Virus record (IMG/VR): IMGVR_UViG_2645727821_000018
DNA: 35,836 nucleotides
Origin: a virus
Taxonomy: Duplodnaviria; Heunggongvirae; Uroviricota; Caudoviricetes
Direction: 5' to 3' (one strand)
Part shown: one piece after another, positions 956 to 7,155 of the stretch
How positions within the stretch are numbered: position 1 is the stretch's first letter
How the letters are laid out: the number at the start of each line of letters is the position of its first letter
Notes under the pieces: generated by a model
Told to the model about the DNA's origin: nothing
Databases searched by the model: none
What the model saw: only the letters and a program-made list of their open reading frames with translations
Position numbers and translations under genes: made by a program

Positions 956-2119
956 AGCCTTTTTATCCTTGATACTTGCCCTCCCATCATACTCTTTCAA
1001 GTATTGTCCATAGTGCCTGAATAACATTTCAGGCCCTTTATGGCCCATTTGAGCCGCAAGCCAAAACAGGTTTGCTCCCCGGCTGATATGGCTGGTGGCG
1101 AATGTATGCCTGGTTTGATATGGGTTTCTGTAACGAATACCTGCTTTTCGCAATGTTGGCACCCATGCTTTTTTCCTAATTGCATCAGCACTTGCCCAGG
1201 GTTTATTGGTCTTTGGATCTTCAAAGACAGTAGCATCCTTCATGAATGTAAATGGCTTCTGGTTTATCAACGCCAACATTGCTTCTTCAGTCAGTTCAAC
1301 TTTACGGGTACCGGCTTTTGTCTTTGTTCCTTTGATAACTCCGACAACACTTGCGCTCTGAACATGGGCTGTTTTTCCAACAAAGTCGATATCATGCCAT
1401 CGTAGGGCACATAATTCAGAACTACGCAGGCCTGTATGTATGGCGAACCGGAACAGATTTTCCCATTGTTTGTTTCCGGCTGCTGCTAGTAATGCATCAA
1501 CTTCTGCTGGTGATAGCGGATCAACCACATAGCTGCTTTCTGCTTCTGACTTATCACTTTGGTAGCGCGAAGCTGTTACTAACGATACGGGGTTAATTTG
1601 AAGTACCCCATCGGTCACGGCTTCATCAAGTGCTGACCGTAGGAAAGATAACTGGTTGCGAATGGTTTTTAAGGTTGTTTTCTGGCTTTGAATCCACGCT
1701 TTCAGGGTTGCTGGTGTTAATTCACTTGCAGGGCAAATGTGAAGTGAGGCTAACGCACTACGGCATTTTTTATAGCCACCAATCGTAGAGGGTGAAAGTT
1801 TTCTTGTTTCGCAGATTTCAAGATATTCGTCCAGGTACATCTTTACCGTTTTGCTTGCAGCAGCATTACCAAAAATTTTCAAACGAGCAGAACGGGGAAA
1901 ATATTCTGCATAAATGAATGTTCCCCTTTCGATCTTATTATGGATTTCGCCGAGTGTACGCTCGGCGTATTTAATGTTCTTTGGTGTTACTTCCAGATTG
2001 GAAAGCGGCTCACGACATCTAACTCCTTTGTAGGTGAAAGTTATATTGATCGTTTCTCCCTGGTGGTGTTTCCTGATTGTTACGCCGCGCGGTAGTTTGA
2101 GCAGTTTTGTCTGGCCCAT
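947..2119 (-). CDS. int: Tyrosine site-specific integrase (phage integrase family)
   Basis: 390 aa; C-terminal catalytic region with conserved RHTFATS...GHK...RHY signature of tyrosine recombinases; followed upstream by an excisionase-like gene in the same orientation. Confidence 0.95.
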   Translation of the reverse strand: MGQTKLLKLPRGVTIRKHHQGETINITFTYKGVRCREPLSNLEVTPKNIKYAERTLGEIHNKIERGTFIYAEYFPRSARLKIFGNAAASKTVKMYLDEYLEICETRKLSPSTIGGYKKCRSALASLHICPASELTPATLKAWIQSQKTTLKTIRNQLSFLRSALDEAVTDGVLQINPVSLVTASRYQSDKSEAESSYVVDPLSPAEVDALLAAAGNKQWENLFRFAIHTGLRSSELCALRWHDIDFVGKTAHVQSASVVGVIKGTKTKAGTRKVELTEEAMLALINQKPFTFMKDATVFEDPKTNKPWASADAIRKKAWVPTLRKAGIRYRNPYQTRHTFATSHISRGANLFWLAAQMGHKGPEMLFRHYGQYLKEYDGRASIKDKKALF

Positions 2120-2286
2120 TTTGCAACCTCACTAAGATCAATCCACCTCTCCTTAACGCCTTCAACCTTTAAAACCTGAACACCTTCACGCCAAACACCG
2201 CGCTGTACACGTTTGTTTATTGCTTCAGGAGTTTCGCCAGTTTCTTTGCAATAAGTTGAGATAGGAACACAATCGAGGTTCAGCAT
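2080..2286 (-). CDS. xis: Excisionase-like small DNA-binding protein
   Basis: Small basic ORF immediately upstream of and overlapping int, as in lambdoid int-xis pairs. Start chosen at the ATG at 2286 (GGAGA 5 nt upstream); the ORF track extends to 2325. Confidence 0.7.
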   Translation of the reverse strand: MLNLDCVPISTYCKETGETPEAINKRVQRGVWREGVQVLKVEGVKERWIDLSEVAKWARQNCSNYRAA

Positions 2287-2327
2287 ACGTTTCTCCATTA
2301 TCCCGTCTGCACACGGGAGCAACATTA

Positions 2328-3218
2328 TTAACGAATAGTGTCGTTACTTTGAAGTACAGCAAATGCCATTAATACTTCTAAAGTATATCTTCTATAAAAT
2401 TTAACAAAACCAACATAGAAAACATAGACGAAGAAAAAGCTAAGCATTATTGAAAGTAAACTATAAAGATAATCACTATGAGTACATAATCGATAAATAA
2501 AGGTTGGAACTGATACCCAAAATGAAATTATAAAGATTAAACATATGTTTCTGCAAAAACCATATAATGCAACATAGTTTTGAATTTTTGTTTGATGTTG
2601 TTTTGAAAACTCATAAACATAATGATATGCCAATCTGAAGAGATCATCATCAAGTCCGTTTTTATCTTGTAATAATTGGCGATTTGTTATGAACTTTTTC
2701 TCATAACCTTCTTTGATCATTAACCATGTTGTATTAGCTAAATGAAATGGTAGAGATTGAGAATAACATAGTTTTTGTGTTATAAAATCCCATAGTATTA
2801 TTGGACATAATACGCATTTGATTATGCGATTCTTTATTTTTGTTTTTTTATCAGCGCTTCTCTCATCGCATGATGGGCTACAAATGCTTTCTGAGGTATC
2901 TATCAATTTTTTAAATAGATATTTGGAAGGATATCCTAATTCTTTATTCATGTATTTTTCGATAAAAAATGCTGACGTGATAGAAATAAAATGTCCAGCT
3001 ATATAAGATATAATAACTATTGAAGCGTAGTTCAAAATGCCAAAGATTTGACTTTGACCTCTGAGCAATTCACTTAAGTCAATAACAATATCTAGATCGA
3101 ATGTCAAACCACAGAAATACATTAATAGGATAAAAAAACCACCTGGTATTAAATATCCAAGAAAGTCATAGAATGAGAATGGATTTTGATTCATTGTTGC
3201 TCTCCAATAATTTTTCAA
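2328..3218 (-). CDS. Hypothetical polytopic inner-membrane protein (AT-rich accessory gene)
   Basis: 296-aa ORF with several hydrophobic segments (for example FFILLMYFCGLTF, IVIISYIAGHFISITSAFF, ICLIFIISFWVSVPTFIY). Strongly AT-rich compared with flanking phage DNA. Sits directly downstream of xis in the leftward operon. Confidence 0.6.
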   Translation of the reverse strand: MKNYWRATMNQNPFSFYDFLGYLIPGGFFILLMYFCGLTFDLDIVIDLSELLRGQSQIFGILNYASIVIISYIAGHFISITSAFFIEKYMNKELGYPSKYLFKKLIDTSESICSPSCDERSADKKTKIKNRIIKCVLCPIILWDFITQKLCYSQSLPFHLANTTWLMIKEGYEKKFITNRQLLQDKNGLDDDLFRLAYHYVYEFSKQHQTKIQNYVALYGFCRNICLIFIISFWVSVPTFIYRLCTHSDYLYSLLSIMLSFFFVYVFYVGFVKFYRRYTLEVLMAFAVLQSNDTIR

Positions 3219-3302
3219 TTTGTAATATAACCTATATCTATATGTTAATAAATTACTTATATGTTCTTTTATGGCAGAGTTTGAATTCGTACGTGCTGAT
3301 TT

Positions 3303-3827
3303 TTACGACTCAGTTAACTCTTTAAAGCGTTCCATAAACATCCCATAGGTATGGCCTGGCGACAGTGGAATAACTTTGAACATCTCTGTTGCCGGGATAC
3401 CTTCCAGTACGGGCCAGAAAGAGCCATCATCAAGCCCGAGATCGCGGCGTTCGGTTGCCAGCATGATGAGATCGGCATATTTCACGGGCGTACTCATAAC
3501 CGGGGGTAACCCGTATTTCTCACGGATTACGGCGTCTATTTTTTCTTCCATCCGTTTATAGTCAGGAAGAAGGCGTTTCAGTGGCGCCGGGATGTCCTGG
3601 CAATACGCTTCTGTTGCATCATGCATTAACGCTTCAAAAGCAAATTCCTGCGGTACCAGTTGGCTGCAAAGCACCGCATGTTGGGCGACGCTGTAGAAAT
3701 GTGAAAGATGTCCTGCAAAGCGACAGATATTTGAAAGAGAAACCGCGATATCGTTAATAACGATGTCGTCTTTATTTATCCTGTCATAATAAAAATGCTT
3801 CCCGGAAAAAGTTTTAATAAATGACAT
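3303..3827 (-). CDS. HD-domain phosphohydrolase (YfbR/YfdR-like 5'-deoxynucleotidase family)
   Basis: H...HD metal-binding pattern (SVAQHAV ... LMHDATEAY). Start placed at the internal ATG at 3827 with GGAGA upstream, about 174 aa; the ORF track extends to 3854. Confidence 0.8.
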   Translation of the reverse strand: MSFIKTFSGKHFYYDRINKDDIVINDIAVSLSNICRFAGHLSHFYSVAQHAVLCSQLVPQEFAFEALMHDATEAYCQDIPAPLKRLLPDYKRMEEKIDAVIREKYGLPPVMSTPVKYADLIMLATERRDLGLDDGSFWPVLEGIPATEMFKVIPLSPGHTYGMFMERFKELTES

Positions 3828-5257: not shown

Positions 5258-5390
5258 AAAACAGAGAAGAACACCTGCGGTGGCAGCCGCCCGGGTGGAT
5301 TGGGTTATGAGCCCGTCGTCCGGTGATGCTCTTCTCTGTTTTGTAAAAAGAGCGGTACCAGCCGGAAGCAAGGGTACAAGCTGGTACCGC
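5258..5390. promoter_or_regulatory. Dyad-symmetry cluster in a 470-bp untranslated region; candidate leftward operator/promoter and structured leader
   Basis: 15-bp inverted repeat arms (about 5258-5272 and 5329-5343, 14/15 complementary) around a 56-bp GC-rich spacer. An 11-bp perfect inverted repeat GCGGTACCAGC / GCTGGTACCGC (5352-5362 and 5380-5390). GTAC-core motifs recur as in the cI-cro intergenic region. Confidence 0.4.
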
Positions 5391-5675
5391 CAGGACTACA
5401 CACAGCATAAAGTTGTGGTGCCGGGTGCCTCCCGGTGCCTGGCGAAGGTTGCACACCAGGCGGGTGGGTATCCACAGAAGGTCGACTGTCAGCCTCAACC
5501 TTAACCCGCGTGCGCTGAGCCGCATTCACCACAACGCTAAGGATTCTCTCTGGTTGAAAATACTTAGCTGTTATGTGCCTGCTTTTAGCCACATCAGGCG
5601 AGGTGGGCCTGGTTATTCCCCAACAACAAGGATTCGGCTAATCTGGATGACTCTGTTCTTAGAGGGGATAATTAA

Positions 5676-6188
5676 ATGGGAGCGATTTATGTTAAACGTT
5701 TGATTCTGTCGGTAGCACTGATAATACCGATAGCATCCAATGCTTCTGATGCTTTGAACCAGCCGAGCAGTAGTCTAAATGATGGTGTTGAGACTTTTTT
5801 TATTTCCTGCTTTGATATGCCTCAGGAAACAACTACTGATATGGACGCTTGTCAGAGAGTTCAGTTAGCTCAGGTTAGTTGGGTTAAGAATAAGTATTCG
5901 GTGGCCGCCCTGAATCGTTTGAAACAAGACAACAAGGATGATCCACAGCGTCTGCAGGAATTAACTGCTTCTTTTAACGCGGAAAGTGAAGCTTGGACAG
6001 AATTAATTGAGAAAGCGTCAAAGTCCGTCCAGGTTGATTATGCAGGAGGAACTATAGCTGGCACTGCAGTTGCATCACGTCAAATTGGTCTTCTGGAATT
6101 ACAATCCCACGATATCTGGGAGCACTGGCTACGATTCGAGGACTCAACTCCTCCTCTTTTGCCAGAACCAAAGTTCAAATCTGAGTAA
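5676..6188 (+). CDS. Secreted or periplasmic accessory protein with N-terminal signal peptide (possibly DUF1311 / LprI-like fold)
   Basis: SD AGAGGGG 8 nt upstream of the ATG. N-terminus LILSVALIIPIASNASDA looks like a Sec signal peptide. Followed by an intrinsic terminator. Convergent with the repressor gene. Confidence 0.6.
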   Translation: MGAIYVKRLILSVALIIPIASNASDALNQPSSSLNDGVETFFISCFDMPQETTTDMDACQRVQLAQVSWVKNKYSVAALNRLKQDNKDDPQRLQELTASFNAESEAWTELIEKASKSVQVDYAGGTIAGTAVASRQIGLLELQSHDIWEHWLRFEDSTPPLLPEPKFKSE

Positions 6189-6215
6189 TAAGTCATCCAG
6201 ATTGTTAAAGAGCGA

Positions 6216-6239
6216 AGCGTCCTATAGGGCGCTTTTTTG
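6216..6239 (+). terminator. Rho-independent terminator downstream of the exported-protein gene
   Basis: Stem AGCGUCC / GGGCGCU with loop UAUA, followed by a run of six T (6234-6239). Confidence 0.6.
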
Positions 6240-6353
6240 TTGCTAACGAATCATCCTGGACTTCATATGCCCCAGGCGGCTACTTCGTGGGCGTCCTGCC
6301 TGTTTGTTGTTTCTCTTGGGTACATTATGTATCTCAAAGGTACATTGTCAAGT

Positions 6354-6379
6354 ATAAAAAAACCTGCCGAAGCAGGTTC
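6354..6379 (-). terminator. Rho-independent terminator downstream of the repressor gene (minus strand)
   Basis: On the minus strand: hairpin AACCTGC-TTCG-GCAGGTT followed by a run of eight T (plus-strand A-run 6355-6362), immediately 3' of the cI stop. Confidence 0.55.
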
Positions 6380-6390
6380 ATAAACATTGA

Positions 6391-7065
6391 TTAGGCTTTG
6401 ATTTTGTATCTTCTTGGTTTTCCTGAGAAAATCACAGTACCAATTATAGAGCAATTACCGTTGATCTTAATGTAAGGCTCAGGCCAGTTTGGGTTTAACG
6501 CTTTGAGATAACGCTGTGTCCCATCTTCTATCAACCTTTTGAAGGTGGTTTCACCTGTATCGTGCATCAATGCAATAACGTCGTCACCGTGGCAGGCAGG
6601 TACTTCAGGATCGACAAAAATCATGTCTCCCGGGCGGTACTCATCAATCATTGAATCACCTATCACCCGCAAGATATAAGTCATTTCCCCACAGGGTACA
6701 GGGCAGGGATACGTTTCTGCTGTGCTCAAATCAACCTCAGAATATCCAACTTCTTTCCATGCTCCGGCCTGTACCCATGATATGACAGGGACTAATGTGA
6801 TTTGTTTATTAGTGATTGAAACATCAGGTTTTTTTGTGATGTTCGTTGTCTGGTGTTCTTGATCGAGCCATCCGACAGGCAGGTCGAAACATTTTTCGAT
6901 GTGTCGTGCCATGCTGTCACCGATATTTTTAGTAGCACCATCTCCCATAAACCTGCTGGTCTGGGTTGGCTCGCGATCAATCATAGTGGCAAAGGAAGAA
7001 TTCCCGCCAACACCATCTCTCAGTTTTCTGGCGTTAGACCGCCGGATGTCATGGATTGTTTTCAT
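6391..7065 (-). CDS. cI: CI-type prophage repressor (N-terminal HTH, C-terminal S24 LexA-like autopeptidase)
   Basis: 224 aa; C-terminal GDSM motif (RVIGDSM) typical of S24 peptidase and LexA-like repressors; divergent from a cro-like gene across an operator-bearing intergenic region. Confidence 0.9.
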   Translation of the reverse strand: MKTIHDIRRSNARKLRDGVGGNSSFATMIDREPTQTSRFMGDGATKNIGDSMARHIEKCFDLPVGWLDQEHQTTNITKKPDVSITNKQITLVPVISWVQAGAWKEVGYSEVDLSTAETYPCPVPCGEMTYILRVIGDSMIDEYRPGDMIFVDPEVPACHGDDVIALMHDTGETTFKRLIEDGTQRYLKALNPNWPEPYIKINGNCSIIGTVIFSGKPRRYKIKA

Positions 7066-7078
7066 AACGAAATTAAAA

Positions 7079-7148
7079 CCCTTGTACCGTTAAGGTACAA
7101 GTATCTTGAAGGTTCATTTCAATCATGTAATATGTACACCGGAGGTAC
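7079..7148. promoter_or_regulatory. Immunity-region operator/promoter (OR/PR-like) between cI and cro
   Basis: Perfect inverted repeat CTTGTACC-gttaa-GGTACAAG (7079-7099). Candidate -35 TTGAAG (7104-7109) and -10 TAATAT (7126-7131) with a 16-nt spacer. A second GTACA-cc-gg-ag-GTACA element (7132-7148) overlaps the cro SD. Confidence 0.5.
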
Positions 7149-7155
7149 ACATTGT

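Follow-up and report, generated by a model that had tools for sequence, protein, structure and literature searches.

A DUF1311-family cargo gene, predicted to encode a secreted protein, beside the repressor of e14/SfV-type Escherichia coli prophages

Introduction

Proteins of the DUF1311 family (PF07007; COG3755, YecT) share a signal peptide and a three-helix bundle, as represented by Pseudomonas putida PP0307 (PDB 3GI7). The name-giving LprI domain of the family is that of Mycobacterium tuberculosis LprI (Rv1541c), which is described as a lysozyme inhibitor in papers that cite the original report (as cited in PMC7933661, PMC12981562). This protein is described as a lipoprotein that also carries an MliC domain, which has been shown to suffice for lysozyme resistance; for the LprI domain itself there is no experimental evidence of lysozyme inhibition (PMC7933661). 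The one functionally studied soluble periplasmic LprI-domain protein of enterobacteria is Salmonella ScwA (SL1344_0490), a horizontally acquired, chromosomally encoded protein; its 275 aa include four cysteines and, at the C-terminus, the LprI domain. ScwA positively controls the levels of the lytic transglycosylase MltD and needs its disulfides, and its deletion leaves lysozyme sensitivity unchanged (PMC7933661).

Other members of the family are associated with type VI secretion. Co-expression of enterohaemorrhagic E. coli (EHEC) Etsi4 (Z0245) rescued the toxicity of periplasmic Etse4 (PMC12981562), and in Salmonella Dublin, SED_RS06230 forms a pair with a transglycosylase/LysM effector (PMC8867033). 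Pantoea genomes contain LprI-domain orphan immunity genes as well as Psi15, which adjoins the pesticin-domain effector Pse15 (PMC9796082; bioRxiv 10.64898/2026.08.01.741415), and LprI-domain genes are neighbours of WHIX effectors (PMC12135965). Signal-peptide-bearing LprI-domain proteins recur as immunity partners of type VI effectors that target the cell wall; these immunity proteins are periplasmic, about 145–170 aa long and equipped with a Sec signal, and some are “orphans” that have no adjacent effector.

Among phages, lambda rexAB and lambda/P22 sieB are non-essential genes near the repressor that alter the phenotype of the lysogen; the rexAB genes are located between cI and PL, and PRM drives their transcription together with that of cI. 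T4 encodes Spackle, a small helical periplasmic protein with a signal peptide that blocks the lysozyme of superinfecting phages.

Here we describe a gene from a Caudoviricetes record (IMGVR_UViG_2645727821_000018), the whole 35,836-nt stretch of which is called the window hereafter. The gene very probably encodes a DUF1311-family protein that is secreted, as judged from its predicted signal peptide, and is carried as prophage cargo. It does not constitute a new kind of system, and re-annotation of the product, hitherto a “hypothetical protein”, as a “secreted DUF1311-family prophage cargo protein” is well supported.

Results and Discussion

The cargo gene and its product

The features of the locus, listed in window coordinates, are as follows.

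5569–5648, no strand assigned: conserved junction block of about 80 nt immediately 5′ of the cargo gene, from comparison with related phages
5662–5667, plus strand: Shine-Dalgarno sequence GAGGGG, 8 nt 5′ of the ATG, read directly
5676–5744, plus strand: signal-peptide coding part, residues 1–23, predicted cleavage SNA|SD
5745–6188, plus strand: mature DUF1311/LprI-fold domain of about 147 aa, stop codon included, from homologues, profiles and model
6214–6241, plus strand: cargo-gene terminator, intrinsic, with a 9-bp stem, a UAUA loop and a U-run, top-ranked site of the scan
6308–6351, minus strand: PL-like early-left promoter TTGACA-16-CATAAT (11/12), overlapped by two operator-like 17-mers
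6360–6379, minus strand: terminator of the repressor gene, from the scan; an equivalent site is annotated in SfV
6391–7065, minus strand: repressor gene, CI-type, LexA-family, same accession as e14 CohE/YmfK (WP_000848748.1)

As read from the sequence, the open reading frame (ORF) at 5676–6188 on the plus strand begins with ATG and encodes 170 aa. It is a real protein gene under purifying selection rather than a chance reading frame: its product matches phrog_7681 over the full length (E 1.2e-120), is annotated in UTI89 as WP_000500990.1, and gives a dN/dS of 0.11 against a Klebsiella prophage homologue that is 71% identical. The GC content of the gene is 43.5%, compared with 50.8% across the window. 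Searches against NCBIfam and PADLOC gave no meaningful match to the protein, and a literature search with the protein accessions and the PHROG identifier returned no paper on it.

The N-terminus is predicted to be a classical Sec/SPase-I signal. It comprises MGAIYVKR (with K7 and R8), the hydrophobic stretch LILSVALIIPIA with a core of 12 residues and a Kyte-Doolittle peak of 2.8, and SNA|SD, in which small residues occupy positions −3 and −1 of the predicted cut after residue 23. An equivalent x-A| cut site is present in every homologue (SHA|A, SLA|S, SYA|E, GHA|D), and the signal-peptide residues have low pLDDT in the AlphaFold model, as expected for a signal peptide. Residues 1–44 contain zero cysteines and no twin-arginine motif was found there; there is no lipobox, because the first cysteine occurs only at residue 45. 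The predicted Sec signal corresponds to the periplasmic targeting signal of the DUF1311-type type VI immunity proteins.

Fold and family assignment

Taken alone, the cargo protein matches the Pfam LprI model PF07007 at 17.3 bits (E 0.0062; residues 50–137 against model positions 8–96 of 106), below the gathering threshold of 22 bits; Etsi4 likewise falls under this threshold, at 18.7 bits. Homology was established through intermediates. A profile of close homologues retrieves 244 proteins, and 59 of 60 sampled relatives match PF07007 (best E 7.9e-20). The 60-sequence family profile matches the DUF1311 crystal structure 3GI7 at 2.5e-6, and hhalign to YecT of E. coli returns a probability of 92.5% (E 5e-7). 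Direct searches of PDB sequences returned noise only, whether the query was the protein by itself or the profile of close homologues.

The AlphaFold2 model built from 60 sequences has a pLDDT of 90.8 and a pTM of 0.81 (a first model, from 10 close homologues, had a pLDDT of 58.6). Its top Foldseek match in the PDB is 3GI7, with a probability of 0.99 and a TM-score of 0.69 on the target over 102 columns; the E-value is weak (0.24), and 3GI7 was also the top match of the weaker first model. The Spackle structure was not among the listed Foldseek matches, and a Foldseek search against viral predicted structures gave no match. The mature domain is modelled as an N-terminal beta-hairpin, three long helices (residues 53–85, 90–121 and 128–152) and a conserved C-terminal tail, HDIWEHWLRFEDSTPPLLPEPKFK, and is acidic (pI 4.6). 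Together, profiles and model indicate that the cargo protein has the DUF1311/LprI three-helix fold by real homology, and it is assigned to a YecT-related subfamily marked by the C-terminal tail W..WL.Y.DSTPP.LPEP. The loose resemblance to DUF1311/LprI proteins proposed in the initial annotation is thus confirmed as homology, and the structure prediction suggested there as a check agrees with it. The label “lysozyme-inhibitor fold” is sustained as to the fold; the inhibitor part derives from the family name, and a Pfam scan at E up to 10 recovered PF07007 alone, with no MliC (PF09864).

With the DUF1311 family the cargo protein shares the first cysteine pair, the Y, the W and the GG(T/S) motif; it differs in being prophage-borne and in the replacement of the second cysteine pair. 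C45 and C59 are invariant and form the only cysteine pair of the cargo protein, and the second pair of the family aligns to S115 and R135 in the cargo clade, leaving two of the four cysteines. Compared with YecT, the cargo protein adds the beta-hairpin and the conserved DSTPPxLPEP tail. It resembles ScwA in being a soluble (by prediction) periplasmic enterobacterial protein with an LprI domain on horizontally acquired DNA, but it is single-domain and has 170 aa and two cysteines. Unlike M. tuberculosis LprI, it has neither a lipobox nor an MliC domain. A mention of DUF1311 in a paper on T4-like phages concerns a non-significant match (E 0.2) and was set aside.

A polymorphic cargo slot

The gene lies between yfdP and cI. 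Homology to phages PhiR29_1, SfV, SfIV, SfII, Kati and ST64B ends at 5606–5648 and restarts at 6195–6247. More than 10 different slot lengths occur in the sampled E. coli genomes; the e14 slot is occupied by ymfI/ymfJ, and the alternative occupants in related phages are unrelated proteins of unknown function. Conversely, the same DUF1311 cassette adjoins three different repressors, in UTI89, CFT073 and Klebsiella. The locus is therefore a swappable single-gene prophage cargo module (“moron”) in a polymorphic slot, variably present between conserved flanks, replaced by unrelated genes and provided with its own terminator. The slot belongs to lambdoid prophages of the e14/SfV/CPS-53 type, where it separates the PL-like promoter/operators from the early-left operon leader.

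The cargo gene is present in 142 of 5426 complete E. coli genomes, in single copy and at no less than 99% identity, with ORF, Shine-Dalgarno sequence and terminator intact. Carriers among extraintestinal pathogenic E. coli include UTI89, CFT073, IHE3034 and APEC O18. In a tblastn search, the cargo protein had no hit among 50,697 phage records, and the gene is absent from sequenced phage isolates.

Members of the subfamily occur widely in Alpha- and Gammaproteobacteria, each as a singleton in a stable neighbourhood of housekeeping genes, among them sucC-like, ETF-beta-like and rlmN-like ones (identified by eye from sequence), and the Enterobacterales relatives adjoin mobile-element genes or unrelated genes. 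No toxin or peptidoglycan-hydrolase partner is adjacent to the cargo gene or was found in 80 loci of the wider subfamily, nor did these loci share a conserved neighbour. This pattern is as compatible with a conserved housekeeping function in the periplasm as with an immunity function.

Regulatory layout

The terminator of the cargo gene (GAAGCGUCC-UAUA-GGGCGCUUU, followed by UUUUG, at 6214–6235) ranks best among 12 sites in a 2.7-kb scan, compared with 2.1 ± 1.9 sites in shuffles. Its hairpin is stable on the plus strand only: the centroid structure of that strand retains it, whereas the minus strand is no more stably folded than shuffled sequence (z = +0.26) and lacks a U-run. The terminator is predicted to be one-directional, and it is common to the plus-strand cassettes of PhiR29_1, SfIV and Kati, in which homology restarts at 6195–6197.

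Outward from cI, the order is cI terminator, PL-like promoter/operators, then the cargo gene on the opposite strand. The operator-like 17-mers (TGTAYC-N5-GGTACA) lie at 6308–6324 and 6328–6344, and three further copies are present at 7083–7149, between cI and cro. The PL-like promoter is directed toward the cargo gene, which is antisense to early-left transcription because it lies beyond this promoter on the opposite strand. The initial annotation had described a stand-alone accessory module, with its own ribosome-binding site, a signal peptide and a dedicated terminator, convergent with cI in the position equivalent to rexAB. Each element of the module was recovered, the signal peptide as a prediction; low GC and the slot beside the repressor accord with it, and the minus-strand repressor gene does converge with the plus-strand ORF. 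The likeness of the position to rexAB is loose: the gene lies beside the repressor in a slot that hosts varied genes, but in regulatory terms the position is not equivalent, as the gene does not share the PRM transcript of cI and, instead of being placed between cI and PL, lies past the PL-like promoter on the opposite strand and has a terminator of its own.

A plus-strand scan for promoters of the cargo gene found no sigma-70 site matching at least 9 of 12 positions. The best candidate of a relaxed scan, TGGATG-17-GATAAT, ends 4 nt before the ATG and is unusable for the cargo gene, because transcription would begin inside the ORF. The 80-nt junction block may contain a cargo promoter or be a recombination joint, and is the sole candidate promoter region. 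It is near-invariant ahead of unrelated plus-strand cargo genes in PhiR29_1 and SfIV, and it accompanies the DUF1311 gene in the Klebsiella prophage, the left flank of which differs. The block has no canonical sigma-70 match and no significant RNA structure on either strand (z-scores +0.5 and +1.0). A sigma-E-like GGATTC-N16-TCTGT noted by eye within it was rejected, as its −10 part is unconserved in PhiR29_1 and SfIV. From the layout, expression of the cargo gene in the lysogen is plausible.

Proposed function and alternatives

By analogy with characterized LprI-domain proteins, we tentatively propose that the cargo protein is a periplasmic binder of lysozyme-like enzymes. It would be made in the lysogen, while cI silences the opposing PL-like promoter, and exported to the periplasm as a soluble protein of about 16 kDa with one disulfide (C45–C59). 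There it would bind, without catalysis, an enzyme of muramidase or lytic-transglycosylase fold. The target would most likely be exogenous (a type VI effector, a pesticin-like bacteriocin or the lysozyme of a superinfecting phage), and the protein would act as an orphan immunity protein that hardens the cell wall of the lysogen. After induction, the PL-like promoter would transcribe against the cargo gene. Against binding of such enzymes stand the missing partner, the lack of specific similarity to Etsi4, the missing second disulfide, the lack of a recognised promoter, and the absence of NCBIfam or PADLOC matches, of phage isolates with the gene and of papers that mention it.

The more specific form of this proposal, in which the phage carries an orphan “immunity” factor, exported by the lysogen, that neutralises lysozyme-like weapons delivered to the periplasm and is switched off by the PL-like promoter upon induction, is unlikely as a complete account. 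The weapons envisaged are type VI effectors resembling Etse4 or Pse15, bacteriocins similar to pesticin and, as for T4 Spackle, the tail lysozyme of superinfecting phages; the proposed logic is the same as that of Spackle. In contrast to the type VI immunity genes, the cargo gene lies in a prophage immunity region rather than a type VI island, and, like its relatives, it is effector-less. No effector adjoins it, and the reading as an orphan copy of EHEC Etsi4, the single experimentally tested DUF1311 immunity protein, was dismissed for want of specific similarity (BLASTP E 1.8; hhalign probability 5.8%).

A periplasmic role that does not involve peptidoglycan hydrolases, for instance in stress, as a chaperone or in ligand binding in the manner of YecT, for a gene picked up from a chromosome, is possible if somewhat doubtful. 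It suits the singleton distribution of the subfamily in housekeeping neighbourhoods, the K-12 record of the core-genome relative YecT, which is named just “protein YecT”, and the deposition of 3GI7 as a protein of unknown function. Yet all functional data found for the fold involve enzymes that target the cell wall, and a gene that moves as single-gene cargo (in prophages, close to a relaxase gene and close to a transposase) points to a trait of conditional use rather than to housekeeping. Those same toxin-less singletons would also suit an endogenous target, and the cargo protein might, like ScwA, alter the abundance or stability of peptidoglycan enzymes that belong to the host (e.g., lytic transglycosylases) and shift wall homeostasis in the lysogen. 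ScwA raises MltD, and lysozyme sensitivity is unchanged by its deletion (PMC7933661); however, the architecture of ScwA differs, with its LprI domain at the C-terminus of 275 aa, and there is no clear reason for a phage to carry such a regulator in a cargo-swapping slot, which leaves this alternative rather improbable.

We consider it very unlikely that the protein inhibits animal (c-type or g-type) lysozyme and so shields lysogens of extraintestinal pathogenic E. coli inside the host, as lysogenic conversion toward virulence. The family name, the inhibitor activity attributed to M. tuberculosis LprI in citing papers and the carriers UTI89, CFT073, IHE3034 and APEC O18 would be in keeping with such a role, but lysozyme resistance is attributed to MliC rather than to the LprI domain, the cargo protein lacks both MliC and a lipobox, and the scwA deletion did not alter lysozyme sensitivity (PMC7933661); moreover, the strain distribution could reflect one prophage inherited by descent. 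That the gene is a passenger, silent or in decay and of no use to the lysogen, is least credible of all. The plus-strand scans found no promoter and the gene is absent from the 50,697 phage records, as a passenger might be; against this, the dN/dS between the E. coli and Klebsiella prophage copies is low (0.11), the signal peptide is conserved, and the reading frame and its signals are intact throughout the 142 genomes.

If binding of lysozyme-like enzymes by the cargo protein is correct, a common E. coli prophage family would spread protection against cell-wall-degrading toxins or phage lysozymes, and prophage carriage, including that of several extraintestinal pathogenic strains with this cargo, would be linked to fitness in bacterial competition. 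Under the orphan-immunity proposal, temperate phages would trade resistance to bacterial warfare in a slot used for other cargo. The locus would also offer a tractable soluble DUF1311 protein for finding what this widespread periplasmic fold binds. The YecT protein of E. coli belongs to the same fold family as the cargo protein.

Cargo gene: reading frame and signals

The cargo gene (5676-6188, + strand) starts with ATG and, as read from the sequence, encodes a 170-aa protein (the window protein); it is convergent with the repressor gene cI (6391-7065, - strand) and has its own Shine-Dalgarno sequence. The convergent orientation and the Shine-Dalgarno sequence, together with a predicted signal peptide and a dedicated terminator, were claimed in the initial annotation, and all are upheld. 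The elements 5′ of the coding sequence are:

5662-5667, + strand: Shine-Dalgarno sequence GAGGGG, 8 nt 5′ of the cargo-gene ATG
5569-5648: conserved block of ~80 nt, the only conserved element upstream of the cargo gene

The predicted signal peptide opens with a short basic n-region containing K7 and R8, continues with a hydrophobic core of 12 residues (LILSVALIIPIA; Kyte-Doolittle peak 2.8), and closes with the c-region SNA↓SD, in which positions -3 and -1 hold small residues; an N-terminal hydrophobic segment ending in an x-A↓ site is kept by all homologues. By sequence inspection, the N-terminus lacks a twin-arginine motif and, because no cysteine occurs before residue 45, the protein also lacks a lipobox. 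The predicted mature protein would have ~147 aa (16.5 kDa, pI 4.6) and two cysteines. The terminator (6214-6235) starts 26 nt past the stop codon with the hairpin GAAGCGUCC-UAUA-GGGCGCUUU followed by a U-run, and is the top-ranked terminator-like site of the region (12 sites in a scan of 2.7 kb, vs 2.1 ± 1.9 in shuffles). RNA folding gives a stable hairpin for the + strand alone; the minus strand folds no better than shuffles and has no U-run, and the terminator therefore works one way.

The window protein has a full-length match to phrog_7681 (E 1.2e-120) and corresponds to WP_000500990.1 in E. coli UTI89. Comparison with a 71%-identical Klebsiella prophage copy gave a dN/dS of 0.11; the ORF is a real gene under purifying selection, with a GC content of 43.5% vs 50.8% for the whole window.

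A promoter scan of the region listed no + strand promoter for the cargo gene, and the sole candidate 5′ of the ATG in a relaxed + strand scan was TGGATG-17-GATAAT, the -10 of which ends at 5672, so that transcription would begin within the cargo ORF. In PhiR29_1 and SfIV the 5569-5648 block directly precedes + strand cargo genes unrelated to this one, and the block/cargo junction there contains a direct repeat of the motif TCCCCAACAAC; in Klebsiella the block accompanies the DUF1311 gene; blocks of this type lie at ~3270-3365 and ~1770-1865 in comparison loci L002 and L004, respectively. Folding of the block gave no significant RNA structure on either strand, and a canonical sigma-70 match is absent from it. 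The block may be a promoter common to these cargo genes, a site bound by a regulator, or a recombination joint (the scar or target of cargo swapping).

Position beside the repressor

The window belongs to the lambdoid prophages of e14/SfV/CPS-53 type, and the query stretch is 100% identical in UTI89, NU14, IHE3034, APEC O18 and others. In lambda, rexAB occupies the interval between cI and PL and is transcribed together with cI, whereas the cargo gene, reading leftward from cI, lies beyond a PL-like promoter and on the opposite strand. The rexAB-equivalent position proposed initially is thus only a loose analogy, given the elements that intervene:

6379..6360, - strand: cI terminator, from the terminator scan
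6351..6324, - strand: strong, near-consensus promoter-like site TTGACA-16-CATAAT, just 3′ of the cI terminator
6308-6324 and 6328-6344: two 17-mers, TGTAYC-N5-GGTACA, overlapping the minus-strand promoter-like site
7083-7149: three related 17-mer copies between cI and cro

The 6308-6351 site is probably the early-left promoter with its operators (PL/OL) and the 7083-7149 copies are probably OR, both of the e14 immunity type, because the repressor protein shares its accession with e14 CohE/YmfK. Since the cargo gene lies past the PL-like promoter on the other strand, early-left transcripts would cross it in antisense orientation; plausibly, the gene could be expressed only while cI silences that promoter. 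To the left of the cargo gene is a GC-rich conserved non-coding stretch, followed by yfdP, yfdQ, yfdR, and int on the minus strand.

Fold and family membership

On its own, the window protein scores 17.3 bits against Pfam LprI (PF07007), below the cut-off of 22 bits, and an indexed protein search returned only 21 matches, those named by organism being from E. coli, E. albertii, and Klebsiella, with one marginal match (E 9e-4) annotated as YecT/DUF1311. An exhaustive search with a profile built from ten close homologues returned 244 proteins, mostly of ~140 aa and aligning to residues ~50-166; PF07007 matched 59 of 60 sampled relatives, query included (best E 7.9e-20). The 60-sequence profile matched the DUF1311 crystal structure 3GI7 (E 2.5e-6) and E. 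coli K-12 YecT (hhalign probability 92.5%). AlphaFold2, run on the 60-sequence alignment, gave a confident model (pLDDT 90.8, pTM 0.81) in which a disordered signal peptide precedes a beta-hairpin (31-43), three long helices (53-85, 90-121, and 128-152), and a C-terminal strand (164-169). Foldseek against the PDB placed 3GI7 first (probability 0.99, TM 0.69 on target), also for a weaker first model; the remaining matches were generic helical bundles. Thus, what was initially described as a loose resemblance to DUF1311 is true homology.

The subfamily has an almost invariant C-terminal tail (W..WL.Y.DSTPP.LPEP) that is absent from YecT, and the enterobacterial clade has lost the second DUF1311 cysteine pair (aligned to S115 and R135) and kept C45 and C59. 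The window protein is a new, divergent member of the DUF1311/LprI/YecT family borne as prophage cargo, and its gene is not a new kind of system.

A slot with exchangeable contents

The cargo gene occupies a polymorphic slot of e14/SfV-type prophages, between the PL-like promoter/operators and the leader of the early-left operon. In local BLAST, homology to PhiR29_1, SfIV, and Kati ends at 5646-5648 and restarts at 6195-6197; the breaks vs SfV and SfII are at 5606 and 6245. Other slot occupants are:

PhiR29_1: a 242-aa protein
SfIV and Kati: two ORFs
SfV: orf33, on the opposite strand
SfII: a 63-aa ORF
ST64B: no annotated gene
e14: ymfI and ymfJ

These occupants are unrelated to the cargo gene and all belong to PHROG families of unknown function; searches of them gave no significant Pfam domain (one sub-threshold match only) and no PADLOC match. 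More than 10 different slot lengths were found in a spread sample of E. coli genomes. Slot-flank sequence is present in 2815 of 5426 complete E. coli genomes and the DUF1311 cassette in 142 (single copy, at least 99% identity). The cassette adjoins a different repressor in CFT073, and in a prophage of Klebsiella variicola it adjoins a third one (an HTH_3/S24 protein); there, homology extends over 742 nt (5569-6310; 78% identity) and includes the gene, 107 nt upstream, and the terminator. None of the 50,697 phage genome records searched encodes the window protein. Sequence comparison indicates that the cargo gene is swappable cargo in a slot that keeps exchanging its contents.

Genomic neighbourhoods of relatives

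All neighbouring ORFs were clustered for 80 loci from Alpha- and Gammaproteobacteria; beyond lineage-level synteny no neighbour is common to these loci, the largest neighbour cluster covering 12. Recurrent neighbours are housekeeping-like (succinyl-CoA ligase beta, ETF-beta, RlmN, and an EAL-domain protein, with representative sequences judged by eye). The closest non-phage enterobacterial copies (40-66% identity) occupy a different site in each genus, with no type VI secretion gene or peptidoglycan hydrolase beside them; their neighbours are:

Erwinia: relaxase gene
Sodalis: integrase fragment
Klebsiella sp. WOUb02: IS1595-type transposase
Elsewhere: mutS or other unrelated genes

A sister clade (L013-L016, from Erwinia, Lonsdalea, Enterobacter soli, and Sodalis; 163-170 aa, 40-46% identical to the window protein) has a near-identical N-terminal sequence across the four genera in different genomic places, which suggests recent horizontal spread; in Erwinia the relaxase gene is ~3 kb off.

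Possible function

The lysozyme-inhibitor label of the initial annotation lacks support as stated: for the LprI domain in this role there is "yet no experimental evidence", and M. tuberculosis LprI also bears an MliC domain that is itself enough for lysozyme resistance (PMC7933661). ScwA, a periplasmic LprI-domain protein of Salmonella, leaves lysozyme sensitivity unaffected and raises levels of the lytic transglycosylase MltD in a manner dependent on its disulfides (PMC7933661). Inhibition of animal lysozyme by the window protein is very unlikely. Across papers, LprI-domain proteins with signal peptides turn up repeatedly as immunity partners of type VI effectors that attack the cell wall: in EHEC, the toxicity of periplasmic Etse4 was relieved by Etsi4 (PMC12981562), Salmonella Dublin SED_RS06230 adjoins a LysM/transglycosylase effector (PMC8867033), Pantoea has orphan LprI-domain genes whose homologues come after lysozyme-like effectors (PMC9796082), Pantoea Psi15 adjoins the pesticin-domain Pse15 (bioRxiv 10.64898/2026.08.01.741415), and WHIX effectors have LprI-domain neighbours (PMC12135965). 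Etsi4 (ECs_0213 in the Sakai genome) is also sub-threshold on PF07007 (18.7 bits). Neither BLASTP (E 1.8) nor hhalign (probability 5.8%) indicates a specific resemblance of Etsi4 to the window protein.

We tentatively propose that the window protein would be expressed in the lysogen, exported by Sec, cleaved after A23, and soluble in the periplasm with one disulfide, where, by analogy, it would bind a lysozyme-like enzyme of muramidase or lytic-transglycosylase fold. An exogenous target is favoured because the gene is mobile and sits in a slot whose contents keep changing. It may be an effector of type VI secretion, a bacteriocin resembling pesticin, or lysozyme from a superinfecting phage; the last of these would parallel T4 Spackle. 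Our confidence in this mechanism is low, because the singleton, housekeeping-like distribution of the subfamily and the absence of a partner gene fit other roles about as well, whether on an endogenous target, as for ScwA (rather improbable), or in the periplasm but unrelated to peptidoglycan hydrolases (doubtful). The window protein is unlikely to be an orphan immunity factor that the phage carries against lysozyme-like weapons, and that a gene under purifying selection is a silent passenger is highly improbable.

Other features of the prophage

The conserved GC-rich stretch that separates the cargo gene from yfdP has a counterpart of 78% identity in Salmonella phage ST64B. Within this stretch, positions 5343-5565 (- strand) match STnc100 (RF02076), a family of prophage sRNAs, over its full length (45.4 bits, E 2.6e-8), just below the gathering score of 47. 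The element ends in a strong intrinsic terminator (5392..5347; -27 kcal/mol, z = -3.9), which a transcript from the PL-like promoter would reach before the first early-left gene, implying antitermination or a terminated leader RNA. RefSeq annotates the stretch as a frameshifted hypothetical protein or pseudogene (ymfH in e14, SfIV_34/35 in SfIV); given the STnc100 match, it is probably an RNA mis-annotated as protein. A preprint treats STnc100 as a PasD-related prophage sRNA (bioRxiv 10.64898/2026.05.13.724894).

Between the integrase/excisionase end and yfdR, the gene at 2328-3218 (- strand) encodes a predicted multi-pass membrane protein of 296 aa (WP_001075212.1, phrog_12528). This protein lacks a Pfam domain and is weakly matched in PADLOC by Csx27, a type VI-B CRISPR membrane accessory protein (E 1.4e-5); its gene may be a further piece of cargo. 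Three small + strand genes at 1-955 (1786-3656 in comparison locus L001) lie between the integrase gene and glaH; they have no PADLOC match, one is annotated as a STAS-like domain-containing protein, and together they may form a small island at the attachment site.
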